From Telmatocola sphagniphila (GTDB lineage Bacteria > Planctomycetota > Planctomycetia > Gemmatales > Gemmataceae): DNA of 32,000 nucleotides. Shown here piece by piece: positions 5,293-28,141 of this stretch. The notes below the pieces were generated by a model. It was not told where the DNA came from. It did no database searches and was given only the letters and a program-made list of their open reading frames with translations. The translations under genes were made by a program, and so were the position numbers. Each line of letters begins with the position of its first letter. Position 1 is the stretch's first letter. The stretch lies in assembly GCF_018398935.1 (NCBI RefSeq), contig NZ_CP074694.1:2010001-2042000 (forward strand), given 5' to 3'.

Positions 5293-5306
5293 GCTCGATT
5301 CCTCTG

Positions 5307-10244: not shown

Positions 10245-10245
10245 A

Positions 10246-10560: not shown

Positions 10561-10762
10561 TTTTGCCAAACCGCGTAGCCATCTCGGTCCGACAGAGCAG
10601 CTTCAATTTGTCGCCGCGGCGGTTGCGGAAGACGAACCAGGTTCCCGACAGCGGGTCGCTTTTGAGATGTTCGCGGGCCAATGCCGCCAGACCGTCGAAG
10701 CTCTTCCGCATGTCGGTCGGGGCCACGCACAGAAGAATCTTCGCCGAAGTGTAGTTTAGCAT
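10561..10762 (-). pseudogene. IS66-family tnpB (orfB), frameshifted and 3'-truncated
   Basis: MLNYTSAKILLCVAPTDMRKSFDGLAALAREHLKSDPLSGTWFVFRNRRGDKLKLL matches the TnpB core (DMRKxFDGL...vFxNrrxdxlKlL). The next conserved block, SDRDGYAVWQ, continues in another frame (ORF 10548..10787). Homology ends at about 10560. Confidence 0.75.
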
Positions 10763-11103
10763 GACGCCTCCTGAGCGGACAACGCACTGAAGAGGGCTCG
10801 GAAGGTCGAATCTTCGACGCCGTTTATCACCACAACGTGGCCCGACGGACAGCGAACTTCGATCATCGTCGGGGACGGCTTTGTTGAATCGGAAGCGGTG
10901 GGAACTACCGTGATCGCAACGAACGCGGGGAGAGCTTCGGTCTCTCGGCGTTTGAGTTCTCGTTGCCAGTAATAATAGGCCGCCTCGCTGATTCGAAGCC
11001 GTTGACAGTAGGCTCGAATGGATTCATTGCTGGATCGCTGATCCAAAATCGTCTTCTTCCAAAATGCTTCCCGCTGGGGATCTCGAACACGACGCTTCGA
11101 CAT
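10756..11103 (-). CDS. tnpA: IS66-family accessory protein TnpA (orfA), apparently intact
   Basis: 115 aa. MSKRRVRDPQREAFWKKTILDQRSSNESIRAYCQRLRISEAAYYYWQRELKRR is the HTH typical of IS66 and IS3-type orfA. It overlaps the tnpB start by 7 nt. The IS terminus lies at 11184. Confidence 0.8.
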   Translation of the reverse strand: MSKRRVRDPQREAFWKKTILDQRSSNESIRAYCQRLRISEAAYYYWQRELKRRETEALPAFVAITVVPTASDSTKPSPTMIEVRCPSGHVVVINGVEDSTFRALFSALSAQEASC

Positions 11104-11310
11104 GACTCCGACTCCTGAGGGTTAAAAACCACCAGGATAACTCATCTGACAAGAAGGGAGTTCACCAACCGGATACTCTTTTTCCATAGTTTTGAGTAAA
11201 TTCCTTACTTCACTGTAGAGAAATCGCGTATTCAATTTCACGGTTTTGGAATAATCTGTTTCGCTCAAATCTCAGCAGTTAAGATTCGTGAATCAACCTG
11301 GGAGGTTTAT

Positions 11311-11562
11311 ATGTCGAATCAACAACTCGTTAGTGGGGATGCTCCCGAACTCAGCGTCCAGATACAGTCCCGAGATTTTCAGAATTGGGCTTCGTATATG
11401 GCTGCCTGGAGCAATCGACTTGATACGCATCCCAGAAATTGGGATGAATTAGAGCTTCTCGATTTCGTCGATCAGTTGCAAAGAAGAACTTACTTTTGGC
11501 AAAAGGAGATCGAAGATAACTTCGTGGAGATGGATAGCACTGACGAAACAATTATTGACTGA
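11311..11562 (+). CDS. Hypothetical small protein
   Basis: 83-aa ORF with GGGAGG 5 nt upstream of the ATG. It heads the plus-strand sensory operon. No domain recognised. Confidence 0.5.
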   Translation: MSNQQLVSGDAPELSVQIQSRDFQNWASYMAAWSNRLDTHPRNWDELELLDFVDQLQRRTYFWQKEIEDNFVEMDSTDETIID

Positions 11563-11708
11563 ACGGAAAGCTCCCAGGCTGACTTGGTCCTGGTTGTACA
11601 CTTGTCGATTGGAGTTCGAAGAAGTTCTCGAAATTCATTTCCAGGGCATTGAGAGGTTCAATATGGAAATCCGGAAGTTTCTCGAAAAAAAATAACGGAT
11701 GTGAATCG

Positions 11709-13157
11709 ATGCAGGCCTCGGCGCGAAATATTATCGATACGGTACCTCACCCTCTCCTCGTCCTCGACGCGAATTTGCGATTGATACTCGCCAACCCCGC
11801 GTATTGTCTCACCTTCGGTTGCACTTCGCCCGCTGTCGAAGGTTACAGTCTCTTCGAGATTGATGGCGGTCGGTGGAATCGGCCCAGCTTACGCACCTTG
11901 CTTGGGGATGTAATCAACCGAAACAGTTTCTTCATCGACTACGAACTCGAGTGCGATTGCCCCCGCGTCGGTCGGCGCGAGTTTGTTCTAAAGGCCCATC
12001 GAGTGTTTCGCGACGAGGGCGGTCGTCATATGGTCCTGTTGGCCATCGAAGACGACACCGAACTGCACCGGATCAAAGACGAACTCCGCCAATCGAAGAT
12101 CGAGTTGGAAGACCAAGGCAAGGCCATGGATCGCCAGCTACGAGATTTGGCTCGGTCCGTTGAATCCACGCGCCATCAAACCCTGTTGCAATCGGAGCTC
12201 AAAATCGCGGCTCTGGAACAAAAAGCGCGCGATCTGGCAAACTTCGTCGAAGGATTGCGAAATCAAACGAGACTGCAGGCGGACGCTAAAATTGCACTCC
12301 TGATGCAGAAAGCACAAGATTTAGCCGTATCAGTGGAGGCGTTGCGCGAAATTACTCTCCAACATTCAGATTCCCAGATCGCGGCGCTCGATCAATCGGA
12401 GAAAGTGACCAGCAGACTCAATGAAGAACTGGAGCGGAGCGCCCTGGAACGGAATCGGCAATTGGAAGCCGCGAACCGGGAGTTGGAAGCATTTTGCTAC
12501 TCAGTGAGTCACGACCTGCGGACCCCGTTGCGGGCCCTGGATGGGTTCAGTCGAGAACTGATCGAGTCGCATTCCGACCGTCTAGACGAGCAAGGGCTTC
12601 ACTATCTTCGCCGGATCCGAGCTGGAACCCAGCGGATGGGACGCCTCATCGATGACCTTCTGAAGTTATCCCGAGTCACGCGAGTTGAGATGACGCGGGA
12701 GCGGGTAGATCTCTCGGCACTTGCCGAGACCGTTTTCGCCGAGTTGCAAGAGCTCGAGCCTGGGCGAGTGGTTTCCTTCACCGTCGGACCCGGACTGTTC
12801 GCCGAATGCGATTTCGCACTCATGCGTGTGGTATTTGAAAATTTACTCGGGAACGCCTGGAAGTTCACTTCCAAGAATCCGACGGCGGCGATCACTTTCG
12901 ACCAAACCGAAGTCGAGGGTCAACGAGCGTTTGTTATCCGTGATGATGGAGCCGGGTTCGACTCCGCGTACATGGGGAAACTGTTCGGCGCGTTCCAACG
13001 GTTACATTCCGACCGCGATTTTCCTGGAACGGGGATAGGCCTGGCGACGGTTCAGCGCGTAGTCCATCGGCACGGTGGAAGAGTTTGGGCCGAGGGGGCG
13101 GTCGGCCGCGGAGCCGCCCTCTACTTCACCATGCCCGGCTCGGAGTATCGCATATGA
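11709..13157 (+). CDS. PAS-domain sensor histidine kinase (paralogue of 5307..6506) with repeat-expanded linker
   Basis: PAS (IIDTVPHPLLVLD...). Long coiled coil. H-box FCYSVSHDLRTPLR, NLLGNAWKF, DDGAGF, GTGIGLA. The start is uncertain: ATG 11709 is chosen here, and TTG 11649 is the longest ORF. The stop overlaps the next start (ATGA). Confidence 0.88.
   Translation: MQASARNIIDTVPHPLLVLDANLRLILANPAYCLTFGCTSPAVEGYSLFEIDGGRWNRPSLRTLLGDVINRNSFFIDYELECDCPRVGRREFVLKAHRVFRDEGGRHMVLLAIEDDTELHRIKDELRQSKIELEDQGKAMDRQLRDLARSVESTRHQTLLQSELKIAALEQKARDLANFVEGLRNQTRLQADAKIALLMQKAQDLAVSVEALREITLQHSDSQIAALDQSEKVTSRLNEELERSALERNRQLEAANRELEAFCYSVSHDLRTPLRALDGFSRELIESHSDRLDEQGLHYLRRIRAGTQRMGRLIDDLLKLSRVTRVEMTRERVDLSALAETVFAELQELEPGRVVSFTVGPGLFAECDFALMRVVFENLLGNAWKFTSKNPTAAITFDQTEVEGQRAFVIRDDGAGFDSAYMGKLFGAFQRLHSDRDFPGTGIGLATVQRVVHRHGGRVWAEGAVGRGAALYFTMPGSEYRI
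12141..12401 (+). repeat. Intragenic tandem repeat, 3 x 87 bp (3 x 29 aa) in the kinase signalling helix
   Basis: RDLARSVESTRHQTLLQSELKIAALEQKA / RDLANFVEGLRNQTRLQADAKIALLMQKA / QDLAVSVEALREITLQHSDSQIAALDQSE. The repeat is absent from the 399-aa paralogue. Confidence 0.75.
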
Positions 13158-13597
13158 CTGGGAAGGTGATTCTGCTGGTCGAAGACAACCAGGACGATGA
13201 AGAACTCGCCCTGCTCGCATTCAAGAAAGGACTAGTGCTGAACGAAGTGGTCGTCGCGAGGGACGGGGTGGAAGCGATCGATTACCTCTTTGGCACTGGC
13301 CCCCATGCCGGTCGAAATGTCAGCGAGCTGCCGCAAATGATGCTTCTCGATCTGAAATTGCCAAGGATGGACGGGCACGAGGTTCTTCGGCGGGTCCGGG
13401 CCGATCCCCGCACCCGCCGGTTGCCGGTAGTCATCCTCACTTCGTCGCGCGAGGAGGAAGATCTGATCCAAGGTTACGATTTGGGGGCCAACTCGTACGT
13501 CCGTAAGCCGGTGGATTTCACTCACTTCGTGGATGCTGTCCGCCAACTCCAGATGTATTGGCTCATACTTAACGAACCGCCTCCGGTGAGAGGTTGA
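13154..13597 (+). CDS. Single-domain response regulator (paralogue of 4834..5292)
   Basis: MTGKVILLVEDNQDDEELALLAFKK...LLDLKLPRMDG...VVILTSS...GANSYVRKPVDF...LNEPPP. ATG 13154 overlaps the kinase stop (ATGA). The longer ORF from 13085 would run inside the kinase gene. Confidence 0.9.
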   Translation: MTGKVILLVEDNQDDEELALLAFKKGLVLNEVVVARDGVEAIDYLFGTGPHAGRNVSELPQMMLLDLKLPRMDGHEVLRRVRADPRTRRLPVVILTSSREEEDLIQGYDLGANSYVRKPVDFTHFVDAVRQLQMYWLILNEPPPVRG

Positions 13598-14610
13598 TCT
13601 CCATCGAACGAACTCCAAGGCTAGTCCTGGTCGTGGACGATGATGTCAAGGTCACCGAATTGCTCCGGAGGGTGCTGGAGGCGGACGGGCACGAGGTTGT
13701 CGTTGCTTTTGACGGTCGAACGGTGGTGGATGAAGTGGCTACGCGCTGTGCCGATTTGGTAATCCTCGATATCGACATGCCCTACTCGAACGGGTTCGAG
13801 ATCTGTCGGCAAATCAAGAGTGATCCCAGGACTCGCATAATTCCGATCCTGATTCTGACAGGAGTCGCCGCCGGCGACCGCATACGAGCTTGGGAGCTTG
13901 GGGCCGACGAGTTCCTGACCAAGCCGTTTAAGCCACAGGAAGTCGCGGCCCGCGCGCGTTCTCTCCTACGCCATAAGGATCTGGTGGACGCACTAGACTC
14001 GGCGGAATCCGTAGTCTTCAGCTTGGTCCGCGCCTTGGAAGGGAAATCTCCGTACACCCATGGTCATTCGGGGCGGGTGATGCAATACGCTCTGGCTCTT
14101 GCGAAATCGTTTGGCCTTAGCGAGGCCGATATGGATATCTTACGTCGCGGAGTCTTGCTCCACGATATCGGCAAGATCAGTACACCCGATGTGATTCTCA
14201 ACAAGCCGGGGCAACTCACGCCCGAGGAAATTGAAGTGATTCGGTTGCATCCCATCGAGGGGGCCAGGATCGTCGGGCCGCTTCGCTCGGCCAGAGACGC
14301 AATTCCACTAATCCGTTGGCATCACGAACGCATGGATGGCAAGGGCTATCCGGATGGTTTGATGGGCGGCATGATCCCACTGTCGGTCCGAGTGCTGTCA
14401 GTGGCGGATATGTACGATGCTCTTTCTAGCGACCGTCCCTACCGCTCGGCGATGACACACAATCAATGCCAGGAAGTAATGGTGGAGAACGCGAAGTCCG
14501 GCGGACTTGATCCTGAGTTGGTTCGCGCCTTCTTTAAGTGCTTCACTGGGCGAATAGGCGCGGCGTCCGTGGCCGAACCGAAGGGGATGGCATCCGAATT
14601 TCCGCGCTAG
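13594..14610 (+). CDS. Response regulator with HD-GYP domain (putative c-di-GMP phosphodiesterase)
   Basis: 338 aa. REC (LVLVVDDD...ILDIDMPYSNG...ILTG...TKPF). HD-GYP (HGHSGRV...LLHDIGK...HPIEG...WHHERMDGKGYPDG). The TTG start overlaps the upstream stop (TTGA). Confidence 0.9.
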   Translation: MISIERTPRLVLVVDDDVKVTELLRRVLEADGHEVVVAFDGRTVVDEVATRCADLVILDIDMPYSNGFEICRQIKSDPRTRIIPILILTGVAAGDRIRAWELGADEFLTKPFKPQEVAARARSLLRHKDLVDALDSAESVVFSLVRALEGKSPYTHGHSGRVMQYALALAKSFGLSEADMDILRRGVLLHDIGKISTPDVILNKPGQLTPEEIEVIRLHPIEGARIVGPLRSARDAIPLIRWHHERMDGKGYPDGLMGGMIPLSVRVLSVADMYDALSSDRPYRSAMTHNQCQEVMVENAKSGGLDPELVRAFFKCFTGRIGAASVAEPKGMASEFPR

Positions 14611-14661
14611 GCTAAAGGCTATTGAACGAAACCGAAGGTATATCGTCTGATTTCGCCACTT

Positions 14662-17600
14662 GTGACAGTTGAACCTAGTCATATTCCCGAGTTTACGGTG
14701 AACCAAATGTCCCAACCCATGCGACTGCTTATTGTTGAGGATAAGCCCGACGATGCGGAACTAGTCGTTCTTGCCCTGAAACAACAAGGTCTTAACACAA
14801 CGTGGCGGCGGGTCGAGACAGCGGACGAAATGCGGTTGGCTCTCGCGACCGGAGCGTGGGACGCGGTACTGTCGGACTATACTTTGCCGGTTTTCGGTGC
14901 TGCGGCCAGCCTTGCGGTCGTACGGGAATTCGACCCGGATCTCCCTTTTATTGTCGTTTCGGGAACGGTCGGTGAAGACGTGGCGGTCCGGATTATGCGA
15001 GCGGGAGCAAACGACTACGTCTTAAAGCACTCACTCACCCGACTGGCACCCGCCCTCGTCCGAGAGCTGCGTGAAGCAGAGAACCGCCGGGCCCTCAAGT
15101 TGGCCGATAAGGTAGTGCGGGCAAGCGAGATTCGTTACCGCCGCCTGTTTGAGGCCGCGCAAGACGGCATCCTTATCGTCGATGTGGTATCACGTCAAAT
15201 TCTCGACATAAACCCGTTTCTAGAGAAACTAATCGGCTACCGACACGAAGAACTGGTAGGTAAAGAATTGTGGGAGATAGGCCTGTTCCGCGACATCGAA
15301 GCCAACAAGACGGCGTTCCACACGCTTCAGGAGCAAGGCTACATCCGCTACGATGACCTGCCACTTGCGACCAAGAACGGACTCCTGATCGACGTCGAAT
15401 TTGTCAGCAACATTTATCGCGAAGGCGACGAGCAAGTGATCCAGTGCAATATCCGCGACATCAGTGCGCGCAAGAGAGCGGAAAAAGTCCTGCTTGAAAA
15501 GGACCTGGAGTTGACCCAAGCGGTCCGCTTGGCCCGGCTCGGCTACTGGAATCGCGACCTCGTAACAGAATATGTGGAGTGGTCGGAGATGCTGTATGAG
15601 ATTTTTGGCATTTCCCGAACTCGTCTGGAACTGACATTTGAGACGTTCCTGGCGACCGTCCACCCGGATGACCGTCAGGCGGTAGCCAACCGAATCGAAG
15701 CGGCCGTAGCCACGATCGGTTCGTTTGAACACTCTTATAGAATTCTCGTTGATGGCGCAGTTAGGGTGATCCACGAAGTGGGCCGCGTAATCGCGTCGGA
15801 GGATGGGATCCCGATCCGCCTTGCCGGCTCTGCACAGGACATTACCGAACAGTCGAAGGCGACGGCGACCATCCAGGCGAGTGAGGAAAGATACCGGACG
15901 CTGATCACCGCGACCACTGCAATCGTTTGGAGCTCTCCACCTTCCGGGGCATTTGACACTTTTCAACCAGCTTGGACGGCATTCACAGGCCAGACAGTCG
16001 AACAACACATGGGGTGGGGATGGCTGGATGCAATTCACCCAGACGATCGGGAAATGAGCGCACAAGCATGGGCGGCGGCGGTGAAGGACCGATGTACCTA
16101 TCAGTTGGAACACAAAATCCGCCGTGCGGATGGGGAGTATCGCGACATGTCCGCTCGGGCCTTGCCAATCTTGGAACCCGAAGGAACGGTACGGGAGTGG
16201 GTCGGCATCCACACTGATATCACCGATCAGAAGCGGGCGAAAGAGAGATTGTACCAGAGCCAGGAGCGGCTAAGCCTGGCGACTGAATCGGCGAGAATCG
16301 GAATTTGGGATTGGAATGTATCATCGAACGAGATGGACTGGGATGCCCGGATGCTCGCGCTATACGGCATTAGAGAGCAGGAGTTTTCGGGTGCGTATAA
16401 TACGTGGAGGAATGGCCTGCACCCGGACGACCGGGACCGCGCGGAAGCCGAGATCGCGGCCGCACTTGCCGGAGTTGAGGATTTCCACACCGAATTTCGG
16501 GTCGTCTGGCCCAATGGCGAGGTTCGCCATATTGAAGCTCACGCCCTGGTACAGCTTGTGCCCGGAGGTCCGGCGACCCGAATGACCGGGGTCAACTGGG
16601 ACATCACCGATCGCAAACGGGCGGAAGACAACTTACACATGCGGGATCGGGCCATTCAGGCGGCGACCCAGGGACTCATGATCACGGACTCCAGTCAGGC
16701 GGACAATCCACTGGTTTTCGTCAATCACGGGTTCGAGCAGATGACCGGGTACGCTTCGGAAGACATCCTTGGCCTCAACTGCCGGTTCCTTCAAGGCGTG
16801 GACACAGACCCAGTCGCGATTGCTCGGATTCGAGAAGCGATTCTCGCCGAAGAATCATATACTCTCGAGATCTTGAACTATCGTAAAGATGGAACTCCAT
16901 TCTGGAACAAACTATCGGTCGCGCCGGTTCGCGGTGCCCTTGGGCAACTGACGCACTTCGTGGGAGTTCAAGAGGACGTTACCGCTCGGAAAAGCCTCGA
17001 AGCACAGTTTCGACAATCCCAAAAGATGGACGCATTCGGGCAACTCGCTGGTGGCGTGGCCCACGACTTCAATAACCTGCTGACCGTGATCAATGGATAC
17101 AGCGACCTCCTCCTCCAGAGCCTTCCCTCAGGTGATCCATCCCGGGAACTGGTCTCAGAGATTCTTAAGGCCGGCGAACGATCGGCCCAACTAACTCGCC
17201 AACTCTTGGCGTTCAGTCGCCAGCAAGTCCTCGCCCCGCGAGTGCTCAACCTGAATGAGGTTGTGAATGAAATAGACAAGATGCTCCGTCGGCTGATTGG
17301 GGAGGACATTCGGCTGACTAGGACTTTGGAATCCAAACTTTGGGCAGTCCAGGCCGATACTGGGCAAGTCGAGCAGGTGCTACTCAACCTCTGTGTGAAC
17401 GCGCGGGACGCGATGCCCAAGGGAGGCCGACTGACAATCGAGACCCAAAACATCAATCTGGACGAGAACTACGCTCGAACCCATTCTGACGTCCCTTCCG
17501 GCCCTTACGTTTTGTTAAGCGTTACGGACACCGGGAGTGGAATGTCAATGGAAGTGCAAGAACGGATCTTCGAGCCGTTCTTCACCACTAAGGGAATCGG

Positions 17601-18144
17601 AAATGGGACCGGATTGGGCCTGGCAACGGTTTTCGGGATCGTCAAACAGAGTGCTGGCCACATCGCCGTGTACAGCGAGGTCGGGGTCGGCACCTCGTTC
17701 AAAGTGTACCTGCCTAGAATCGAGCAACAATCTAAAGTCTTGAAAGCCCCGTCTCGAATTCTGACGCCCCCGCGCGGAACGGAGACAATCCTGTTTGCGG
17801 AAGACGAACCCGGCGTACGAAACTTGACGTACCGAATTCTGGCAGGCTGTGGCTATAAGGTTCTGTTAGCAGGAGATGGAGAAGAAGCTCTGCGAATTGC
17901 CGAAGCGGATCGTGGGCCGATCCATTTGCTGATCAGCGATGTTGTCATGCCTGGAGCGGGCGGGCGCACGACTGCAGATCAAATCACTCGGATGCACCCC
18001 GAGGCTCGGGTTCTGTACATTTCCGGATACACCGACGACGCGGTCATCCGACATGGGGTTCTAAGGGAGGGTGTACATTTCCTTCAGAAGCCGTTTTCCC
18101 CAGCCGCGCTTGCAACCATTGTGCGGGAGATACTTGATTCGTAA
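14662..18144 (+). CDS. Hybrid sensor histidine kinase with LOV domain (REC-PAS x4-LOV-HisKA-HATPase_c-REC)
   Basis: 1160-aa longest ORF (GTG 14662). ATG 14707 and ATG 14719 are equally plausible starts, since the receiver begins at [12 protein letters not shown]. Four PAS-like modules. LOV ([31 protein letters not shown]...[11 protein letters not shown]...FVGVQEDVT). [35 protein letters not shown]-terminal REC. Confidence 0.92.
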
Positions 18145-18288: not shown

Positions 18289-19836
18289 TTAAATCGCGGT
18301 TTTGAGTTCTTTCGGGAACTCTTTGATGCGGATACGAACGGCCGCCGCCATCACCGCATTGCCTTTATCCGTCACGTGATAGCGATGCGCCCGCGGGACT
18401 TTCCGAATCAATCCATGAGCGCGCAACCTTCCCAATTGTCGCGAGACTCGTTGCGTTTGCCGACGCCGTTCAGCGGCATCCCGGGCGGGCTCGTTCAACG
18501 CTTTCAGGATGTCGTGGTTGCGAAACCCATTGATGCGATTATCGCCGCATAAGACAGCCAGGAATAGCTTCTGTTCTTCGGCGTGCATCAAGTTCAAGCC
18601 GCGTCGCTTCCGGTTACCCAGAGAGACGGGTTGACTCAGTTGGTCGAGTTGACGCACGGTGACCGAAGGAGCGTCCACAACGGCCAAAGCCTCGAGATAG
18701 CGTCGATTCGAAGCGCGGGCGACTTCGAGGTAGCGATAGAAATTAGACACGCCTTTGTTCATGGGGCACCAGGCCATTTTTTCGACCCCTTTGCGGATGC
18801 ATCGACGGCGGACGTGGAACTCGCCTGGCTGGTTGATTACTGTTTCAATGCGGAGAATCCGTTCGAATTTGTCGTACATTTTCAGCCAATTGCCTTTCAT
18901 GCGGTGCTTGACGCGTGTGCCCGGTGCCCGTTTCTTGCGGCCCAGAGTAAGAATTTCTCCGTCGAATTGAGGATAGAGCTTGCGTCCCAGGAATTTCATA
19001 AGGTCGTCGGCAGAGAACTGTTGAATCGAGTGATCGACCAGACGCGGGTAAAGAGCTTGTAAGTCTTCACGACTTCGGAACAAAACGTCCGTGCTGTACT
19101 CGGCTCGATCGATCACCCAGTAGTATTGGCAGCGGTTCAGCCAGTCTTTTTTCAATAGCGGATTGGCCCGGCGGACCCAACGGTCGAGAATTTTGATCCA
19201 ATTCAAATGGGCAAAGCGATCGGCCAGACGTTGAGCGGCTTCGGGATTGTCGAGTTGAACGAAGGCATTATCGCTTTGAAGGAAGCCGATCTGCTTTTCG
19301 TTCATCTGGCGGGCCAGCCAGTCGTGACCGTTGACGTAGACTTGGACGCTGTAAGGAAAGAAGGTTTGGATGCGGACATGGATCAGTCCGAACTCGGGAT
19401 CGAGAGAATAGAAATAGACGACGCGTTGCGGGCGAGACGTGAAGTACAATTCCGGTCGATCCTTGCCGGGACGCAGCTTGACGCCGCGACCGGTTTCCAT
19501 GCAGCACAGCACGGCGACCAGTCCTTCCTTTAGACTGCGTTTGGCAATCTCCTCGCGGATGATCTGCTCTTTGGTGTGCTCCCCTTGGAGAAACTGATAA
19601 GGAGCACCGGCTTCGGCGGCGACTCGTTTGCCATGTTCCACCAGTTCTTCGGACAGACCTTCCAGGAAGGGAACGAAGTCTTTGCGACGCATGCCCAGTC
19701 CGCTATCGCAGAGACGGTGGAGATCTCCATTCTTGAAAAAGGGAAGATATCCTTTGAAAATCACGCGGTCGTGACATTCCAGAACGGATAGAATGGAATC
19801 GGCGAACTTCTTCGTAAATGAGTTGATCGTCGGCAT
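18289..19836 (-). CDS. Conserved-looking hypothetical protein, 515 aa (function unknown; C-terminal winged-helix-like segment)
   Basis: Long uninterrupted ORF with host-like codon composition. The C-terminal RQLGRLRAHGLIRKVPRAHRYHVTDKG resembles a wHTH recognition segment. I could identify no catalytic motif. Confidence 0.7.
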   Translation of the reverse strand: MPTINSFTKKFADSILSVLECHDRVIFKGYLPFFKNGDLHRLCDSGLGMRRKDFVPFLEGLSEELVEHGKRVAAEAGAPYQFLQGEHTKEQIIREEIAKRSLKEGLVAVLCCMETGRGVKLRPGKDRPELYFTSRPQRVVYFYSLDPEFGLIHVRIQTFFPYSVQVYVNGHDWLARQMNEKQIGFLQSDNAFVQLDNPEAAQRLADRFAHLNWIKILDRWVRRANPLLKKDWLNRCQYYWVIDRAEYSTDVLFRSREDLQALYPRLVDHSIQQFSADDLMKFLGRKLYPQFDGEILTLGRKKRAPGTRVKHRMKGNWLKMYDKFERILRIETVINQPGEFHVRRRCIRKGVEKMAWCPMNKGVSNFYRYLEVARASNRRYLEALAVVDAPSVTVRQLDQLSQPVSLGNRKRRGLNLMHAEEQKLFLAVLCGDNRINGFRNHDILKALNEPARDAAERRRQTQRVSRQLGRLRAHGLIRKVPRAHRYHVTDKGNAVMAAAVRIRIKEFPKELKTAI

Positions 19837-20011: not shown

Positions 20012-20863
20012 GTGGACAGTTTCTTACCAGGAACCGAACCAAGCCTGAATGGCCAACCGCGTGAGCCCCACTCCTTTACAAATGTCGTCTCACTCATCGA
20101 CCTCGCTCTGACACAGTACAAAGACGTTGTTACTGTCACGCCAGCCACGTCCGCTCGGGAAGCGATTCGGCTCCTCACTCAACACCGTTTCTCGCAAGTC
20201 CCCGTTGTAGACCGGGGTCAGATCGCTGGGTTATTCTCCTACCGATCCTTTTCACTCGCCGTAGTGAACGCCTTTGATCTGCCAGGGCGACACAGGGCAG
20301 ATGGACTGTCTGTCTGGGAGTGCATTGAGAGTCCCAGCTTTGTGCAAGGAACTGACGAGTTCCAACGTTTGTTCGATCTACTCGATCATCGCGATGCGGT
20401 TCTTGTTGGAACACAGGGGCGGTGTAATGGCATCGTAACCGCGATGGGCGTGTTGCGGTATCTTTTTGAGACGACAAGCCCATTCCTGCTTGTGGCCGAA
20501 ATCGAACTCTCCCTCCGAGCAGTCATCGAACTTTCCCTGGATCCTGATGAACTGAGCCTTTTCGCCAGCTCGAGTCTCGTGCATTATACACCGGAGAAAA
20601 TGCCGACGAAGCTTGAAGATATGACCTTCAGCGATTACGTCGTACTGATTGGGCACGGCAGCAACTGGGACCGTTTCAATCGAGTCTTTCATGGGGACCG
20701 TGCACTCACACATGCGAAATTGAAACAGCTCAAAGATCTGAGAAATGATGTCTTCCATTTCCGCCGAAGACTGGCCGACAGGGACCGCGACATCTTGACC
20801 GAGTCGCGTGATTGGATGCGTCGATTGGTAACACTTGCTGGCGGACTGGAGGACTGGACATGA
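20012..20863 (+). CDS. CBS-pair domain protein fused to a Swt1-like HEPN domain (predicted ligand-regulated RNase)
   Basis: 283 aa, GTG start. Two CBS motifs (VVTVTPATSAREAIRLLTQHRFSQVPVVDRGQIAGLFS; SFVQGTDEFQRLFDLLDHRDAVLVGTQGRCNGIVTAMGVLRYL). The C-terminal half carries AEIELSLRAVIE...MTFSDYVVLIGHGSNWDRF...LKDLRNDVFHF, with the HEPN Rx4H motif (R244-H249, nt 20741-20758). Confidence 0.8.
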   Translation: MDSFLPGTEPSLNGQPREPHSFTNVVSLIDLALTQYKDVVTVTPATSAREAIRLLTQHRFSQVPVVDRGQIAGLFSYRSFSLAVVNAFDLPGRHRADGLSVWECIESPSFVQGTDEFQRLFDLLDHRDAVLVGTQGRCNGIVTAMGVLRYLFETTSPFLLVAEIELSLRAVIELSLDPDELSLFASSSLVHYTPEKMPTKLEDMTFSDYVVLIGHGSNWDRFNRVFHGDRALTHAKLKQLKDLRNDVFHFRRRLADRDRDILTESRDWMRRLVTLAGGLEDWT

Positions 20864-21021
20864 CCCATCGAGTTCCTGAACCAGCTTCTCACAAAAAAAA
20901 GGCTACCCCCAGATCAAAAAGTGGTGATCGAAGCCGGATGTTTCGATCCACCTACCGTTAATGAACTATCAAGGGATACTTAACCGAACCGCCATCATAC
21001 TTCATAGAATCCGGTACCCAC

Positions 21022-23472
21022 ATGAGTAAACCCCACGAATCCGAATCCGTCCCTTCTAACGCCAACCTAGGAAACGATCCTGAAAAGCTCATAAGTTGGT
21101 TCCAGTCCGACGTAAAACCGTTCCTCGAAAACATCCAACCTGAAAAGGTCGGCCCTCTCGAGGCCGATGCACATAACTTAGAGGCGGTAGCCCAAACGGC
21201 TGATCAAGAACTAACCGTCTGTTTTCTAGGTAACGCTGGAGTTGGTAAGAGTACCCTCATCAACTCGTTAGTGGCCGGCAAGGACGTCATCCTGCCTGCT
21301 GGCGGCATCGGCCCGCTTACCGCTCAGGCGCTTGCTGTACGATATGCCCCCCAACGCCGGTTCGAGGTTGAGTATCATCCGCCCCAGAACTTATGGCAAC
21401 TCACGTTTGCCCTTGAGAGTGTCTTGCAAAGGGAGGCCCGCCGGGATCGGTCGGTGAGTGGAGAAGACGAACTGAAGCAGGAGAGTGGCAACGAGACCCG
21501 TACCGAATCGGAGTTAGGGGCCGTTAGCGGTCCTCAGCTCGGTAAAACTCTCGAAGAGCTAAAACGGCAGGCTCAACTGCTCGTTACGGGCGATCAAGAC
21601 CAGCAGACTGATCTCGACTACCTCGTCGACACTCTCCGAGAAGCGACAGCAAACAAACGGATCTGGGGGACTACCCCACGTCCTGAGGATGAAGCACGTG
21701 TGCGACAGATCCGCGAGGCCCTTTCCTGGGCGTCAGAAACTGGCAAGCCGTGTACTTTCACGGCCGAGGATGCAGGGTTCCAGGCCGCACTAGGCCACCA
21801 CGCATCCGGGTTCCTTGCCCCGCTTATAAAGGAACTACGCGTCTACTGGGATAGCCCACTTCTATCGGAAGGGGTGACTCTCGTCGATCTCCCCGGTGTC
21901 GGGATCGTCAACGACGTATACGAGGCGACAACTAGCAAGTGGATACGCGAACGGGCTCGAGCCGTCATTCTGGTGGTTGAGACCCGCGGGCTGAACGCGA
22001 CTCACGCTGAACTCCTTCGTAGTAGCGGCTTTCTCAACCGACTTTTATACGCGGCAGACGATCCAACTGCCGACCCCGTGGTACTCATGGTGGTTGTAGT
22101 AAAGGGAGACTTAGTTGCCGAAGAGGAGTACATCAAAGATCGGTCACGGAAGAAGCGCGAGCACTTCGCCGACGTCCGCTCAAAGTCGATTGAGCACATT
22201 CGGCATCAACTCCGAAGTCAACTCGAGGAAGTGTGGGCATCCGATGATGTAACCCGTGAGCGGACACGTAAGGGTGTCATCGAGACGATACTTGCCGGAC
22301 TCCAGGTGCATCCGGTATCCGCACCTCAGTACCGTAAGCTGCTAGAGGCCGATGAGGACGACCGTGCCTTCATCAGTGAATCCCATCAGAGTGGAATCCC
22401 GGGATTAGTTGCCGGCCTGACCGATCTGGCTCGCAGCCAGCGGCAGGCGCAAGCCCTTCGCCTGCGGGAGGTGGGCGGGGATTTTTTTCAACGTGTCCTG
22501 GCCACAGTCCGGGTGAATCAGGCGAAGTGGCGTGAGGAGGCTCGGGCAAGTCAGGAGGCGGAGCGGCTTCGCAGTGAGCTCGATGAGTTCCTGGAGCCGC
22601 TCCGACGGGAGTTTCATGCTCGGCAAGGGGCATTCCGCGAGTTCCTCCGTGAGACGTTACCGTCTAACATTCGGGAACTCGTAGAGAAGGCCAAGGGCCA
22701 GTCGAGCCGTGACATTGAGAAGTATTTGAACACACTACAGGACGCCCATTGGGCCACTCTGCGAGCTGCGGTTCGAAAAGGTGGTGCATTTGACGGCGCT
22801 CGCAACATTAACCTTCCACTTGATTTCGCAATCCGTTTCGAAGAGCCAATCGCTGAAGTGTGGGGGAAATCAGTCCTCAAAGAGATCCGCGGGCGTACTC
22901 AGCAGTTCGCCCGGGACTGCGTTACGTTCGTCGATCAGGTGGTAGAGTGGGCAAAAAAGCAAGGGGCGAGGGTCCAGACCCAGCTTGTCCTCGCCCAGCG
23001 GGAAGAGATCATTGCCGACGCAAAGCGGTTGGAGGCGGTGGGCCGGGAAATGGTTAACGAGCTCCGGGACCAGGTGAAGAACACCCTTATACGCAAGGTC
23101 GAGGGGCCTATCAGGAAAAAGTGTGAGAAGTTTGTAAAGGATAACGAGGATCGTGGGAGTGGGGTAAAGGTTCGAATCCTCGGCTTATTTAACCAGCTGG
23201 CGCGGGATGCGACCGAGGCCGCCAGTGTCCCTGCTATCGAAATCCTAACCGCGCAGTTCAGGGAGGTAGAAAAGGAGATCCTGGTTGTCTTTGAGCAGCA
23301 TACGGATCCGCTAACATCAGCTGCTGACTCGATCGTCGCTTCACACGAACTCCGTGTCAAGCGAAGTGACGCGCAGAAACGAAAGAAGGTATTGGCTGAC
23401 GTCGACGCAGTATTGACCGCGTGCCCGTGGCCCTTGCCAGCAGAAACCAGTAACGAGGGAGGTGGTCAGTGA
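21022..23472 (+). CDS. Dynamin-superfamily large GTPase (bacterial dynamin-like protein)
   Basis: 816 aa. G1 GNAGVGKS (nt 21229-21252). G2 region GPLT. G3 LVDLPG. G4 VVKGD. A roughly 190-aa insert lies between G2 and G3. The C-terminal region of about 450 aa is highly charged and helical. I saw no strongly hydrophobic paddle or TM segment. Confidence 0.85.
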   Translation: MSKPHESESVPSNANLGNDPEKLISWFQSDVKPFLENIQPEKVGPLEADAHNLEAVAQTADQELTVCFLGNAGVGKSTLINSLVAGKDVILPAGGIGPLTAQALAVRYAPQRRFEVEYHPPQNLWQLTFALESVLQREARRDRSVSGEDELKQESGNETRTESELGAVSGPQLGKTLEELKRQAQLLVTGDQDQQTDLDYLVDTLREATANKRIWGTTPRPEDEARVRQIREALSWASETGKPCTFTAEDAGFQAALGHHASGFLAPLIKELRVYWDSPLLSEGVTLVDLPGVGIVNDVYEATTSKWIRERARAVILVVETRGLNATHAELLRSSGFLNRLLYAADDPTADPVVLMVVVVKGDLVAEEEYIKDRSRKKREHFADVRSKSIEHIRHQLRSQLEEVWASDDVTRERTRKGVIETILAGLQVHPVSAPQYRKLLEADEDDRAFISESHQSGIPGLVAGLTDLARSQRQAQALRLREVGGDFFQRVLATVRVNQAKWREEARASQEAERLRSELDEFLEPLRREFHARQGAFREFLRETLPSNIRELVEKAKGQSSRDIEKYLNTLQDAHWATLRAAVRKGGAFDGARNINLPLDFAIRFEEPIAEVWGKSVLKEIRGRTQQFARDCVTFVDQVVEWAKKQGARVQTQLVLAQREEIIADAKRLEAVGREMVNELRDQVKNTLIRKVEGPIRKKCEKFVKDNEDRGSGVKVRILGLFNQLARDATEAASVPAIEILTAQFREVEKEILVVFEQHTDPLTSAADSIVASHELRVKRSDAQKRKKVLADVDAVLTACPWPLPAETSNEGGGQ

Positions 23473-26216
23473 GTCCACTAGTAACGCGTGAAGGCCAGAA
23501 TTCGCCCGCAACAATCCTCCGCAAATTCGAGGACTTCGGATTCCCGTCTGTCGACCTTGTGAACCCCCCCCGGAGGTTCTGGGCCGACAGAGATGCGCCA
23601 GGACCGGTGGTCGAGACGCAGGTCGACGCTCGCCGGGTAACTCCGCTCCCAAGCCCCTCCGGTCTTCTTGCGAACCTTCCAGTGGATGATAACTGGCCAG
23701 CCCAAACTCGGCGTAGCCTCGCCCGGTTGTGGGCTTACTATCTTGTGTGTGAAGACCCGCTCCGAAGACTCGACGCCCGGCCCGTTAACACACTTGCCCA
23801 TCAGGTTAGCCTAGTGCAACATGTGCTCGAGACCGAGCACCTCCGGCGCGTCCTTGTGGCGGATGAGGTCGGGTTAGGAAAGACGGTCGAGGCAGGATTA
23901 ATAATCCAGCACCTGCTCGAACAGTCACCGGGTCTGCGGGTACTGTATCTCGCTCCTGCCCGGTTAGTCACAAACGTATGGCGCGAATTTGAACGGCTGG
24001 GATTACACTTCCGGCAATGGTCGGCGAGTGAAAATACAGCCAATCTGACTGACCCACTCGTCGTTGCGAGTATCCATCGGGCGGTTCATGGCAGCAATGT
24101 CGAACGAGTGCTCAGCACTTGGCCCTGGGACGTGATCGTGGTAGACGAATGCCACCACTTGTCAGACTGGGCGGCGGGAGGCGGTGACCCACGAGAAAAG
24201 TTTAGACTGGTGAGGGATTTGATCGCTCATCAGCCTTCAGGTGCTCGAGTGATCTTTCTGAGCGGCACTCCGCATCAAGGGCATGCCAACCGGTTCGAGA
24301 ATCTGCTCGGATTGTTGCGAAAACCGGACGAACCAGCCGAGGCGTTGGCCGGACGAGTTATCTACAGGACGAAGGAGGACGTTCGCGACTGGAACGGTAA
24401 CCCGCTTTTCCCGACTAGGCAAGTAAACCCCCCAATCCTAGTAGACTTAGGACCCGAATACCGGGAATGGGTGCAGCACATACACGACTTCTTCCGACCA
24501 CCGCCCGGCGACCCAGGCCGGGCAGATGCCAAGCGGCGTGCGGCTGGATGGCGATGCGCGCAGGCGCTCCAGTGGGCAACGTCTAGCCCGCAGGCTGGTC
24601 TCGGTTATCTAGTAAGACAGGCGATTCGAGCACGCTGCGACCTTGGCGATGAGCCGCTCGAGCAGGCTATTGCCGCACTCAGACCATACCGCCGCGGACC
24701 GGTCGACGAACCTGTTGAAAAACTCTTTAAGCGAATCCAGCGTGAGGTCGGTCCGTCTAACGAAACGGACGAAATCGAGGACATTGAGGAGGAGGGCCAG
24801 AACGAAACGCGTGAGTACGGACGCGCACTAACCAGGCTATTAGCTGAGGGGGTTCGCCTAGTCAGGTCATCGGCGGATGAGAAATGGGCAATCGTAAAGA
24901 GGGAGTTGCTAGATCCTCACGGTGACGAAAAGGTAGTGCTATTTGCCCAGCCAATCGAAACGGTGATGGCGATTGCCCAATACCTAGAGCGAACGAGTGG
25001 AGCTCGCCCGGCTCTAATCATCGGCGGCCAAAGTGAAGCCGAGCGGGAAGCCGAAGTAGCAGCATTCTGGCGGCCTGATGGGCCACGGTTTCTAGTGTCA
25101 TCGCGCGCTGGTGGCGAGGGGATCAACTTGCAGATCGCTCGGCGTTTAATTCACATTGATGTTCCGTGGAATCCGATGGACATGGAGCAGCGAGTCGGTC
25201 GTGTCCACCGGTTTGGATCACGGCGAACCATTATTGTGGACACTGTAGTTGTTACCGACAGCCGGGAGGCTCACGCCTATCGAGTCGCTCGCCAGAAGTT
25301 GGAGTTGATCGCCCGCGCCCTCGTACCTTCGGAACGATTCGAGGCTGTGTTCTCTCGGGTGATGGGGCTAGTTCCCCCGGAAGAACTACAGGATGTTTTG
25401 ATACAAGCGGCCGCCGGGCCACTCTCCGACCGGGATCAGGATGCAATTAATCGGATGGTTCAAGAAGGTTTCGGGGCCTGGCAGGCCTTCCATGATCGGT
25501 TCGCCGATAGACAGCGACAGATTCGACAACAAGATCCTGGGCTGGCGACCTGGGAGGATGTAAGCCGATTTCTTGCGGAATATGGAAACGTCGAGACTCG
25601 TGAAGGGTTCAGAGCGCTTCGATTCACTCGGACGGGCGATCAAGTCGATCCAATCGAACAGCCGGTGAATGTGGTAAACCTCGGTGACCAAGAGCAGTAC
25701 GTCTGCGGAGACGTCGGTGGTGCGCCCGTCTTCGGGCCGGACGGCAAACAAGCTCGTCAGCTTGGTCTCAACCTTCCTCCCGTTGCAGAACTTCTTCGCC
25801 GTCTTGCATTCGCTACACCAGCGGGCGCCGCCGTGCTAAGGGTGACTAACGAACTTACACTTCCGGGCGTGGACAACTCCACGCCATTAGGAGTTTTGAT
25901 CTTTGCACGGCAGACGGTTCGCCCGGACCCCCGTTCTGGACACATCGAGATCGGGTGTTCGCTGCCATGTTACATCCTCACCGCTGATAGTAACCCTGTA
26001 CCTGTCGAAGGGCCTCTGAAGCGGGCTCTCCTCTACGCCCTATTTGACGCCACCGTCGCGCGGGTCAGGCCAGAGCCGGTTGACCAGTTGATTGCAGCTA
26101 TCGGAAGGTCTGAAACCGAGATCGGGAATCAGCTCCGTTTTCCGTCGGAACAGGAAATGCAGTCTGGAGTGCGACATGCCGTCACTCCGCTTCTTGCTGC
26201 CTTGGTACTCAGGTAA
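23469..26216 (+). CDS. SNF2-family (SWI2/SNF2, RapA-like) helicase/ATPase with unassigned N- and C-terminal regions
   Basis: 915 aa. Motif I ADEVGLGKT (nt 23862-23885). Motif II VVDECHHL (DECH at 24144-24155). Motif III FLSGTPHQG. Motif V SRAGGEGINLQ. Motif VI WNPMDMEQRVGRVHRFG. The GTG start overlaps the GTPase stop (GTGA). Confidence 0.9.
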   Translation: MSPLVTREGQNSPATILRKFEDFGFPSVDLVNPPRRFWADRDAPGPVVETQVDARRVTPLPSPSGLLANLPVDDNWPAQTRRSLARLWAYYLVCEDPLRRLDARPVNTLAHQVSLVQHVLETEHLRRVLVADEVGLGKTVEAGLIIQHLLEQSPGLRVLYLAPARLVTNVWREFERLGLHFRQWSASENTANLTDPLVVASIHRAVHGSNVERVLSTWPWDVIVVDECHHLSDWAAGGGDPREKFRLVRDLIAHQPSGARVIFLSGTPHQGHANRFENLLGLLRKPDEPAEALAGRVIYRTKEDVRDWNGNPLFPTRQVNPPILVDLGPEYREWVQHIHDFFRPPPGDPGRADAKRRAAGWRCAQALQWATSSPQAGLGYLVRQAIRARCDLGDEPLEQAIAALRPYRRGPVDEPVEKLFKRIQREVGPSNETDEIEDIEEEGQNETREYGRALTRLLAEGVRLVRSSADEKWAIVKRELLDPHGDEKVVLFAQPIETVMAIAQYLERTSGARPALIIGGQSEAEREAEVAAFWRPDGPRFLVSSRAGGEGINLQIARRLIHIDVPWNPMDMEQRVGRVHRFGSRRTIIVDTVVVTDSREAHAYRVARQKLELIARALVPSERFEAVFSRVMGLVPPEELQDVLIQAAAGPLSDRDQDAINRMVQEGFGAWQAFHDRFADRQRQIRQQDPGLATWEDVSRFLAEYGNVETREGFRALRFTRTGDQVDPIEQPVNVVNLGDQEQYVCGDVGGAPVFGPDGKQARQLGLNLPPVAELLRRLAFATPAGAAVLRVTNELTLPGVDNSTPLGVLIFARQTVRPDPRSGHIEIGCSLPCYILTADSNPVPVEGPLKRALLYALFDATVARVRPEPVDQLIAAIGRSETEIGNQLRFPSEQEMQSGVRHAVTPLLAALVLR

Positions 26217-26267: not shown

Positions 26268-26650
26268 GGGTTCTGTCGCACAGTTGGTGACGAGCGTTGG
26301 TTAGAATGTCTTTAGGAATTCATTCTGACAGGACGCAGCATCATGACTATGCAGGACCTCTTTCCTCAAGAGGCCGGTTTGGTCGTTACCGATTTCGCTC
26401 TCACTCCGGAACTCTTGGCAATCGCCATTCAATCCACCAAGCCCCATTCTGCCTGTCCCAACTGCGGTCGAATATCGGACCGCATTCACAGCCATTATCA
26501 GCGTGTATTGGCGGACTTACCCTGGCAAGCTCGCCGAGTACTACTCAGGATCGAACTGCGAAAATTTCGATGCATGAATGCCGCTTGTCCCAGGCAAATC
26601 TTCTGTGAACGGCTACCTCATGTATTTGCTTCCCATGCTCGAACAACTGG
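26268..26650 (+). mobile_element. ISL3-family IS, 5' remnant (IR plus transposase N-terminal zinc-finger region)
   Basis: ORF 26343.. reads ...CPNCGRISDRIHSHYQRVLADLPWQARRVLLRIELRKFRCMNAACPRQIFCERLPHVFASHARTT. This is the zf-ISL3 signature (CPxCG...RxLxDLPxxGxxVxLxxxxRRFxCxNxxCxxxxFxERLP). Homology ends at about 26650. The GG-initiated putative IR ggttctgtcgcacagttgg at about 26268 resembles the end at 858. Confidence 0.75.
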
Positions 26651-27030
26651 TAATCCTTGTCGAAAACGGGCCCAGGTACTCATTAAAATCCTTGTCGAAA
26701 ACGGGCCCACCCCTCAACGTCTTCCTGTAAACTGGTTTCCCCTGGAGGGATCCCAGACTGCAGGAGGCAGAGGATGGTCAAGGTGGACGAATACGCGAGA
26801 ATACGTCAGGCTCATCGAATAGATAAGATGGGCATCCGTGCACTGGCCCGGACTTTTCATCATTCCCGGCGGAAGATCCGTCAGATTCTCGACGAGCCGG
26901 AACCCAAGCCGTACCAGCGACGAGCCATGCCATCGCTGCTCGACTCTTTCACGGCGATTATTGAGGAGATCCTGCGGAGCGATCGAGAAGCTCCCCGCAA
27001 GCAGCGACACACCGTCGCTTACTATGAACA
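26651..27030 (+). mobile_element. IS21-family IS, left end with subterminal direct repeats and istA 5' fragment
   Basis: Two copies of aatccttgtcgaaaacgggccca contain a TGTCG... terminus-like motif. They are followed by an IstA N-terminal HTH reading MVKVDEYARIRQAHRIDKMGIRALARTFHHSRRKIRQILDEPEPKPYQRR..PSLLDSF...APRKQRHT. IstA homology stops near 27020-27035. Confidence 0.7.
26652..26709 (+). repeat. 23-bp direct repeat x2 (IS21-type multiple terminal repeats)
   Basis: aatccttgtcgaaaacgggccca occurs at 26652-26674 and 26687-26709, both perfect. Confidence 0.85.
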
Positions 27031-28141
27031 AGGTAATCCGGAATATCGGCGATTGATTGCAGAACTTGAAGGATTGACCGTCTCCTCGGCAGAGGACAAG
27101 CTTTTCAAAGGAAATGCTCTGGCACTCCACTACCCCGCGGACGGACTGCGGCTGATAGACCAAGCGCTAGCGGTACGCCCCTCCACTCTCGGACACCTGC
27201 TTCGGGCCGATGCGCGGTCAGAGCTTTCCCAAGTTGTAGGTGATGTTGCTAGTGCCGAGGACGCCGTTTCCTCCACAGAACTCGCTAAGCAACTCTTGCC
27301 TGACAACCCTGCCCGATTGGGGAAAAACTGCACCGCCCATTTGACTGCTATGGCGGCGTATGAAAGAGCCGGTAATTCGACAAAAGGTGCCGAACACTTG
27401 ACTACGGCGGCCGCTGACGCCGCGAAAATGGCTCGCTTCGAAAGAAATCCGACAGCCATCCTCTATCGCTACGATGTGGCCGCTATTATTGACGGGCTTG
27501 AAGGCAAACTGGACCGTACGTCGGAACTGCGTGCTGCACGTTCCGGTCGCCACGACCTGCTCTTGACGATCTACGAGGCGGACAACTGGCTTGCCCTGGG
27601 CAACGATCAAGAAGCCGAGAAAGTGGCGAGCGAACTCCCAAGTTCAGGAACCGGATCCTTAAGAGTCTTGGCGGCCCTGGGGAGAATAGACGGTCGCACT
27701 GTTGCTCTAAATGCCATTGATCGTTATGCCGGTCCTGATTCGAAATGGAAAGCCCGTTATACAGCCGCTCCCTTCCTATTCGCGTTGGATCGGGCGCGAT
27801 GTAGCACTCTCCTTAAGCCGCTTCTCCAGGAAAATGACCCTATCGCCCGACCGGACGAACTCGCCGAGTCCAAACGAAACCTCTCGATGTTGGCGGGTAC
27901 GATCTCGGAATCGGATCTGCTATCCGCTCCGGCTCGTGGCCCGGTGGAGCTGTGCAACCGTCAATACTTTGTTGCCTGGAAGCGAATGGGGGAAGGAGAT
28001 CGCGAGGGGGCTATCAAAGCATTTGAAGAGTGCTATCGTTACAAGTTGGTCGATCACGCCGCGTGGGTGCACGCTCGGATCATCCTCATCCGAATGAAGG
28101 ATCCGAATTGGCCGCAGGCCCTTTTGACGAAAAAGCATTGA
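26774..28141 (+). CDS. Chimeric ORF: IS21 IstA N-terminal HTH (about 82 aa) fused in frame to a TPR-like helical-repeat protein C-terminus
   Basis: 455-aa open frame. The first about 82 aa are IstA-like. The rest (...LCNRQYFVAWKRMGEGDREGAIKAFEECYRYKLVDHAAWVHARIILIRMKD) looks like TPR or Sel1-type helical repeats. It is probably a truncated host gene captured behind an IS fragment. Expression is unknown. Confidence 0.55.
   Translation: MVKVDEYARIRQAHRIDKMGIRALARTFHHSRRKIRQILDEPEPKPYQRRAMPSLLDSFTAIIEEILRSDREAPRKQRHTVAYYEQGNPEYRRLIAELEGLTVSSAEDKLFKGNALALHYPADGLRLIDQALAVRPSTLGHLLRADARSELSQVVGDVASAEDAVSSTELAKQLLPDNPARLGKNCTAHLTAMAAYERAGNSTKGAEHLTTAAADAAKMARFERNPTAILYRYDVAAIIDGLEGKLDRTSELRAARSGRHDLLLTIYEADNWLALGNDQEAEKVASELPSSGTGSLRVLAALGRIDGRTVALNAIDRYAGPDSKWKARYTAAPFLFALDRARCSTLLKPLLQENDPIARPDELAESKRNLSMLAGTISESDLLSAPARGPVELCNRQYFVAWKRMGEGDREGAIKAFEECYRYKLVDHAAWVHARIILIRMKDPNWPQALLTKKH

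Follow-up and report, generated by a model that had tools for sequence, protein, structure and literature searches.

Three genes read in the same direction occupy positions 20,012 to 26,216 of a 32,000-nucleotide stretch of the Telmatocola sphagniphila genome (contig NZ_CP074694.1; the whole stretch is called the window below) and raise the question of what the functional unit of this locus is. They code for a protein with a CBS pair and a HEPN domain, a dynamin-superfamily GTPase, and an SNF2-family ATPase, and a preliminary description, made from the letters alone, proposed them as one undescribed three-gene conflict or defence module. The comparison of related loci gives a different answer, as the conserved unit is the pair of the GTPase (about 815 amino acids, aa) and the SNF2 protein (about 915 aa), not the trio. 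The reading preferred here, to which the sequence comparisons lend about an even chance, is that this pair is an undescribed module of defence islands that captured a CBS-HEPN RNase as an effector in one planctomycete-centred clade. The elements of the locus are the following (nt, nucleotides):

20012-20863, + strand: gene 1, predicted RNase with a CBS pair and a Swt1-like HEPN domain (283 aa, GTG start)
20105-20464, + strand: CBS pair of gene 1 (about aa 32-151)
20465-20863, + strand: HEPN domain of gene 1 (about aa 152-283)
20864-21021, + strand: spacer between genes 1 and 2 (158 nt)
21022-23472, + strand: gene 2, dynamin-superfamily GTPase (816 aa)
23469-23472, + strand: GTGA stop/start overlap of genes 2 and 3 (4 nt)
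23469-26216, + strand: gene 3, SNF2-family ATPase/translocase of the RapA/BrxHII/DrmD/DpdE-like group (915 aa, GTG start)

The three open reading frames (ORFs), all on the + strand, and the GTGA overlap lie exactly where the preliminary description had placed them. Its domain calls hold as well, with Pfam matches above the cutoffs, intact motifs, and a HEPN assignment that comes from the catalytic motif and from homology to the anti-phage protein DS-11. The trio is far beyond chance, given domain scores over the curated cutoffs and hundreds of full-length homologues.

The GTPase-SNF2 pair

Gene 2 has the G domain of the dynamin superfamily, matching Pfam Dynamin_N with 42.5 bits (cutoff 27) and retaining the G1 to G4 motifs. 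Specifically, G1 (GNAGVGKS, with K76), G3 (DLPG289-292), and a G4-like KGD361-363 are intact, and the P-loop residues, T100, DLPG289-292, and D363 are invariant in the family. The closest solved relatives of the family profile are mitofusin-1 and mitofusin-2 (E 9.5e-6 for mitofusin-2) and the cyanobacterial SynDLP, and the NCBI name of the product is “dynamin family protein”. The G domain contains an insertion of about 120 aa and is followed by a long conserved helical region, and the crude test of a Kyte-Doolittle profile revealed no membrane paddle or hydrophobic segment (maximum 19-residue mean 1.44, with the peak in a core strand of the G domain). An exhaustive search collected 288 clusters at 50% identity (E <= 1e-30), and scans of viral contigs and plasmids gave no member of the family. 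Among the members, P0342, P0331, P0310, and P0380 have an additional N-terminal part, which is a NERD nuclease-related domain, a Ser/Thr kinase, a pair of FHA domains with one more P-loop, or, in a DynA-like tandem, another dynamin G domain.

Gene 3 belongs to the SNF2 family, with SNF2-rel_dom (31 bits, cutoff 24.9) and Helicase_C (71 bits, cutoff 23.5) above their Pfam cutoffs and motifs I, II, and VI intact as GLGKT135, DECH226 (D226/E227), and QRVGRVHR574. PADLOC models cross-match it (DrmD 159, BrxH 156, and HmaA 147 bits, the BrxH models scoring 128-156 and only partially), and in NCBIfam it stays below the equivalog cutoffs of DpdE (179 against 500), DrmD (174 against 610), and RapA (143 against 576) and also widely misses that of ZorD. 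The best relative in the PDB is RapA (7e-31), whose alignment is confined to the helicase lobes (aa 102-278 and 481-598). The N-terminal part of about 110 aa and the C-terminal part of about 300 aa, which the preliminary description had been unable to assign, likewise have no family match in the libraries searched; still, by analogy, both ends may follow the architecture of RapA and BrxHII, in which a Tudor domain, an inactive restriction endonuclease, and an alpha+beta C-terminal domain are arranged (PMC12839542). Homologues of gene 3 align over aa 1-915, the unassigned ends included. A search with the C-terminal region alone retrieved 13 mostly fragmentary homologues, and owing to this small set its AlphaFold2 (AF2) model is weak (pLDDT, the per-residue confidence score, 64). 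RapA ranks second in a fold search with this model at a non-significant E of 0.07, and no nuclease or other effector could be assigned from it.

The synteny of the two genes is strict. Relatives of the GTPase were gathered by contig look-up, from named genomes, and, with a C-terminal alignment specific to the family, from metagenomes; the scan of named genomes, whose pattern was a generic P-loop, contributed at least five full-length loci. A long SNF2 gene is next after the GTPase gene in 28 of the 28 loci with downstream sequence, and four more loci agree, bringing the count to 32 loci at 40-84% identity in four phyla (Planctomycetota, Acidobacteriota, Bacteroidota, and Pseudomonadota); in the five loci that look like exceptions, the contig stops within the GTPase gene or just past it. 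The gene calls of the relatives overlap by 4 nt in L001/L002, L003, L004, and L044 and by 11 nt in L005/L006, and the GTGA overlap indicates translational coupling of genes 2 and 3, in agreement with the co-translation originally proposed. Moreover, the divergences of the GTPase and SNF2 proteins are closely correlated (r = 0.97, n = 26).

Some loci depart from this layout in detail. Acidobacterial L007:12408-13199 and L008:12408-13199 hold an extra 263-aa ORF between the GTPase and SNF2 genes that overlaps both and has no Pfam or PADLOC match, and their SNF2 proteins have an N-terminal extension of about 190 aa. At L045:10580-13335, the long SNF2 gene is called as two ORFs (645 and 285 aa), a split that a frameshift, a pseudogene, or an error of assembly could explain.

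The neighbours of the relatives are nearly always defence genes, in support of the defence interpretation of the preliminary description. A Type I restriction-modification (RM) system adjoins the pair in near-clade loci (defined below) such as L001, and other loci have large Type III-like methyltransferases (Mod), a Res-like enzyme, or GmrSD. A reverse transcriptase is also among the neighbours of the pair, and one further locus has NERD-kinase, WYL, and restriction endonuclease genes. In L004, the pair is nested between a DrmMI/Type IIG methyltransferase and a DruE-like giant helicase, and a DrmD-like SNF2 gene is present there too. Across the loci compared, no universal third gene stands beside the pair. 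A variable effector slot upstream of the GTPase was considered and rejected, as no family recurs at this position, which is taken by methyltransferases, a WYL-like regulator, a DnaQ-like exonuclease, or unassigned genes. Neither PADLOC v2 nor NCBIfam (June 2026) has a model for the GTPase, the pair, or the trio, and the open-access literature searched describes no dynamin/GTPase-SNF2 pair, no such trio, and no “CBS-HEPN”.

As a separate observation, PDC-S68, a PADLOC candidate with a helicase of about 1200 aa (AAA_30/UvrD_C_2), adjoins the pair on either side in three unrelated loci (L003:13899-17585, L010:5496-9089, and L035:2-1321). Between it and the pair lie a small cpYpsA-like gene in L003 and an unannotated 189-aa ORF in L010.

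Gene 1, its relatives, and the surroundings of the trio

The N-terminal half of gene 1 is a CBS pair (Pfam CBS 46 bits, cutoff 24), matched over about aa 31-151 by profiles of Bateman pairs, namely AMPK-gamma, MJ1225, and CBS/CbpB models. Its C-terminal half carries the RNDVFH motif (R244-H249), that is, the Rx4-6H signature of the HEPN superfamily in the form R244-x4-H249; R244, N245, and H249 are invariant among 34 homologues, and so are E163 and E165. The AF2 model of aa 152-283 is all-helical, with six helices (pLDDT 88; pTM, the global model score, 0.81), and Pfam HEPN_Swt1 gives weak matches in 8 of the 34 family members (best E 0.017). Members of the CBS-HEPN family were not found in viral contigs, and none of the PADLOC v2 models represents gene 1. 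The public annotation of this gene appears truncated: the NCBI entry is a “hypothetical protein” of just 164 aa (P0141, 58% coverage), and homologues support an ORF of the full 283 aa that starts at GTG and includes the CBS pair.

The nearest characterized protein is DS-11, a one-protein CBS and HEPN anti-phage system validated in the 2026 DefensePredictor study, in which defence depends on Y157 of the CBS domain and on the HEPN catalytic residues; that paper contains no GTPase, SNF2, or helicase system (PMC13092281). Gene 1 matches the NCBIfam profile NF053863 (“DS11_antiphage”, “CBS domain-containing anti-phage protein”) with 105 bits and E 3.8e-30, aa 35-265 covering profile positions 81-301 of 305. 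This score misses the equivalog cutoff of 260 bits, the gene 1 subfamily scores 105-124 bits, and true orthologues reach 405 bits (E. coli) and 382 bits (Rhizobium) on the same profile; the alignment of gene 1 with true DS-11 shows 23-25% identity. Gene 1 nevertheless has the DS-11 architecture of a CBS pair and a HEPN domain with Rx4-6H, and its F60 aligns with Y157 at the adenine-contact position, which is aromatic in 33 of 34 family members. Judged by sequence, gene 1 is a sub-threshold relative within the broader DS-11 family, and so this part of the trio is not undescribed. The novelty claimed at the outset stands for the GTPase and for the trio, which match no named system in PADLOC v2, NCBIfam 2026, or the literature searched, and is withdrawn for gene 1.

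Relatives of gene 1 at 42-49% identity point to a habitual partner. In all four such loci, the CBS-HEPN gene (283-295 aa) is followed, with an overlap of 4-8 nt, by a gene for a short SNF2 helicase (465-526 aa):

L018:7001-9354: CBS-HEPN and short SNF2 module
L019:7001-9453: CBS-HEPN and short SNF2 module
L020:7001-9270: CBS-HEPN and short SNF2 module
L021:7001-9410: CBS-HEPN and short SNF2 module

All four lie within defence islands (TIR, PLD plus SNF2, MmeI-type enzymes, GmrSD, and PIN), and PADLOC models neither gene, generic SNF2 cross-matches aside. The combination looks like a candidate system of its own. The short SNF2 protein was rejected as an orthologue of gene 3, with which it shares only 21% identity. 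The 4/4 association nonetheless implies that an SNF2 motor is the habitual partner of the gene 1 subfamily. Fusions of Swt1-type HEPN domains with SWI2/SNF2 ATPases, and with CBS domains, are documented in a 2013 survey, which proposed that CBS-HEPN proteins regulate RNA stability upon ligand binding (PMC3710099).

Upstream of the GTPase-SNF2 pair, the CBS-HEPN gene occurs only in the near clade, defined by GTPases at least 69% identical to gene 2; there it has no short SNF2 gene of its own and always stands directly before the pair. The trio was seen directly in all five near-clade loci examined (L001/L002, L044, L049, and the P0008 contig), and contigs of equal length in the match lists of gene 1 and the GTPase suggest that six more near-clade contigs carry it. 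The spacer between genes 1 and 2 measures 158, 113, 84, or 43 nt and is partly conserved, and the flanks of the trio differ among the window, L001, and L044/L049. In L001, about 127 nt of the hsdR 3' end are present twice (L001:4963-5090 and L001:11590-11717), with 93% identity over an 84-nt core, and exactly the three genes lie between the two copies; the right-hand copy is frameshifted and lies 22 nt past the SNF2 stop. The trio thus came as one cassette in that lineage, and the arrangement points to an exchange of defence cassettes through recombination at the hsdR end. No repeats were found to flank the trio in the window, in L044, or in L049.

Several near-clade contigs keep a three-gene block after the trio (L044:13610-17638 and L049:14227-16849), with products of about 390 aa, about 489 aa, and 461 aa, the last being a superfamily 1 helicase (AAA_30/AAA_12). 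No PADLOC model matches this block, which the window and L001 both lack and which may represent a further uncharacterised system.

In the window, the trio is flanked by the following elements:

18289-19836, - strand: divergent orphan ORF upstream of the trio (515 aa)
26343-26822, 3' of gene 3: N-terminal fragment of an ISL3 transposase (zinc ribbon, profile positions 2-83 of 370)

Both had been noticed in the preliminary description, the second as an ISL3 end past the helicase gene. Searches of Pfam, NCBIfam, PADLOC, PHROGs, and PDB sequences gave nothing significant for the 515-aa orphan, only a weak winged helix-turn-helix-like match at aa 459-501, and it is outside the module because it is missing from all related loci. 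Debris of insertion sequences (IS) extends over 26343-28141, where the ISL3 fragment overlaps a 455-aa ORF of which only the first 80 aa or so match an IS21 transposase; since the remainder is unrelated, this ORF is probably chimeric or disrupted. The G+C content of the trio, 0.53-0.58, is near that of the adjacent 12-28 kb, in line with the host-like composition described earlier; the first 8 kb of the window have 0.41-0.49, below that around the trio. Positions 1-18144 code for four PAS histidine kinases (one of them a 1160-aa hybrid kinase), a GAF-PAS-GGDEF cyclase, an HD-GYP-type response regulator, and an extracytoplasmic function sigma factor, and a DDE transposase fragment lies at 1178-1795. 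No tRNA or Rfam element was found in the window, and a promoter/terminator scan of the spacer between genes 1 and 2 gave nothing convincing.

Possible mechanism and competing explanations

In the reading preferred here, the core would consist of two translationally coupled proteins, a soluble GTPase of the dynamin superfamily and an SNF2 DNA translocase of the RapA/BrxHII/DrmD-like kind, which most likely form a complex. The add-on would be a CBS-HEPN RNase gained directly upstream of this core in one clade; other members of its subfamily would ordinarily act with a short SNF2 protein of their own. The SNF2 motor would engage invading or aberrant DNA in an ATP-driven manner, and the GTPase may act as an oligomerising switch or as a scaffold upon the SNF2-DNA complex. 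A signal would then pass to the CBS-HEPN dimer, whose CBS pair would bind an adenine nucleotide and gate the HEPN RNase, as in DS-11, and the cleavage of RNA would result in growth arrest or abortive infection. In lineages without CBS-HEPN, the pair presumably acts alone or beside neighbouring restriction-type systems. A more specific proposal, which we consider rather unlikely, is that the dynamin GTPase, which has no obvious membrane paddle, and the SNF2 translocase form an obligate complex and would represent a new class of dynamin machine in prokaryotic immunity, directed at nucleic acids and not at membranes. In the Telmatocola clade, this machine would directly license the CBS-HEPN protein, perhaps by passing a nucleotide ligand to it or by letting it go from the complex, to give a three-component system of sensor, switch, and effector.

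Several observations weigh against the capture of gene 1 as an effector of a defensive pair. Outside the near clade, none of the 21 loci with 1 kb or more of sequence upstream of the pair has the CBS-HEPN gene, and the RNase is thus no obligate part of the system; of the three-gene module first proposed, what holds broadly is the pair, while the trio is conserved in the near clade and moved as a cassette in L001. No effector was identifiable in the pair alone, and the neighbours of the Telmatocola trio are signalling genes and IS debris, with no defence genes. The HEPN assignment itself is well supported by homology and motif and weakly by structure, since a Foldseek search of the PDB with the HEPN model gave no match at E < 0.79 (the top TM-scores, 0.40 for Csm6 and 0.35 for HepT, are to HEPN proteins) and a HEPN-only profile found nothing in PDB sequences. 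Moreover, DS-11 defends as a single gene and its true orthologues have no helicase neighbour, and by this precedent gene 1 could be autonomous. Gene 1 and the pair may then be two independent systems, a DS-11-like single-gene CBS-HEPN abortive infection system and a GTPase-SNF2 system, which are co-inherited because defence genes cluster. This explanation is possible, with a probability well short of even. It fits the occurrence of the pair without CBS-HEPN in most lineages and the gap of 158 nt between genes 1 and 2, which do not overlap, unlike genes 2 and 3. Near-clade contigs also share synteny past the trio, with Type I RM upstream and other common neighbours, and the co-occurrence could therefore be plain island inheritance; furthermore, the identities of genes 1 and 2 to the window are imperfectly concordant (69% and 84% in a 5348-bp contig, 89% and 81% in a 36047-bp contig). 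Conversely, independence sits poorly with the distance of the gene 1 subfamily from true DS-11, both in score and in the missing N-terminal domain of about 110 aa, with its overlap with an SNF2 helicase gene in the four loci outside the near clade, with the consistent position directly upstream of the pair of near-clade CBS-HEPN genes that have no short SNF2 gene of their own, and with the L001 duplication, which delimits exactly the trio.

The frequent methyltransferases raise another explanation, namely that the pair is an accessory module of methylation-based systems (Type I or III RM, or DISARM-, Druantia-, or ARMADA-like), whose complexes it might remodel or load on DNA, the Telmatocola copy being an orphaned remnant. 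Methyltransferase systems adjoin the pair in most long loci (Type I RM, Type III-like Mod/Res, and DrmD-like with DrmMI/Type IIG and DruE-like genes), the L004 pair stands between a methyltransferase and a DruE-like helicase, and the trio of the window abuts IS fragments. Set against this, the systems found beside the pair belong to several unrelated types and lie upstream or downstream, L003, L010, and the window have no adjacent methyltransferase, and all catalytic motifs of the window copy are intact, which argues against a decaying remnant. We hold an accessory role to be improbable. A role outside defence, such as a RapA-like ATPase that recycles RNA polymerase together with a regulatory GTPase, and a CBS-HEPN protein that senses nucleotides and regulates RNA stability, appears highly improbable. 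It would agree with RapA as the closest solved relative of gene 3 and a notable NCBIfam match, with the signal transduction genes around the window copy, and with the RNA-stability proposal of the 2013 survey (PMC3710099). However, the pair is patchily distributed over the four phyla with no conserved housekeeping synteny, its neighbours are almost always defence genes, the RapA score lies far below the cutoff and covers the helicase lobes only, and the relative of gene 1, DS-11, is experimentally anti-phage (PMC13092281).

Comparison with known defence systems

Gene 1 and DS-11 share the order of a CBS pair followed by a HEPN domain and the motifs SQxPV, GIxT, EIE...R, and RNDxxHF, and in both the binding of an adenine nucleotide by the CBS pair likely gates a dimeric HEPN RNase. 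They differ in that DS-11 is a one-protein system with an N-terminal region of about 110 aa, which gene 1 lacks, and in that true DS-11 loci have no helicase neighbour, whereas the gene 1 subfamily is coupled to SNF2 helicase genes. This systematic coupling suggests a route for the activation of CBS-gated HEPN RNases, which the DS-11 study left open. The Swt1/Abi2-family HEPN-SNF2 fusions (e.g. WQE_15321; Anantharaman et al. 2013) likewise tie a Swt1-like HEPN domain to an SNF2 motor in RM-like conflict systems. Those fusions are single polypeptides without CBS domains, whereas here the proteins are separate and a CBS sensor is added, and in the clade of the window a GTPase stands between the CBS-HEPN and SNF2 genes.

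As for the GTPase, Eleos is, to our knowledge, the sole known dynamin-based defence system. It consists of two consecutive dynamin-like genes, LeoA and LeoBC (Millman et al. 2022). Both Eleos and the pair place dynamin-superfamily GTPases in defence islands, and the P-loop of the Eleos GTPase is needed for defence. The window locus has one dynamin-like gene followed by an SNF2 gene instead of two dynamin-like genes, the PADLOC match of gene 2 to LeoBC (27 bits) covers the P-loop only, LeoA is not matched, and no membrane-like segment was detected in gene 2.

The helicase core of gene 3 is nearest to those of DISARM DrmD, BrxHII of BREX type 3 with ArmA of ARMADA, and DpdE of Dpd, and its length and extra N- and C-terminal regions resemble the layout of RapA and BrxHII (PMC12839542). 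None of these assignments accommodates the window, where DrmA, DrmB, DrmC, DrmMI, and any methyltransferase are absent and the DrmD score is 174 against 610, where the BREX type 3/ARMADA partners (a PglX-like methyltransferase, PglZ, BrxC, and a YprA-like helicase) are absent, and where no dpd genes accompany a DpdE score of 179 against 500; RapA itself, at 143 against 576, matches only the helicase lobes. A dynamin-like GTPase as an obligate partner distinguishes the pair from DISARM, BREX type 3/ARMADA, and Dpd. If validated, the pair would be a further, widely distributed defence module (at least four phyla, with about 290 clusters at 50% identity) in which a dynamin-like mechanochemical GTPase is tied to a DNA motor, not to membranes, a design that bears on the possible origin of Mx-like antiviral dynamins and whose logic is unlike that of Eleos and of the SNF2 systems DISARM, BREX, Dpd, Zorya, and Hna.

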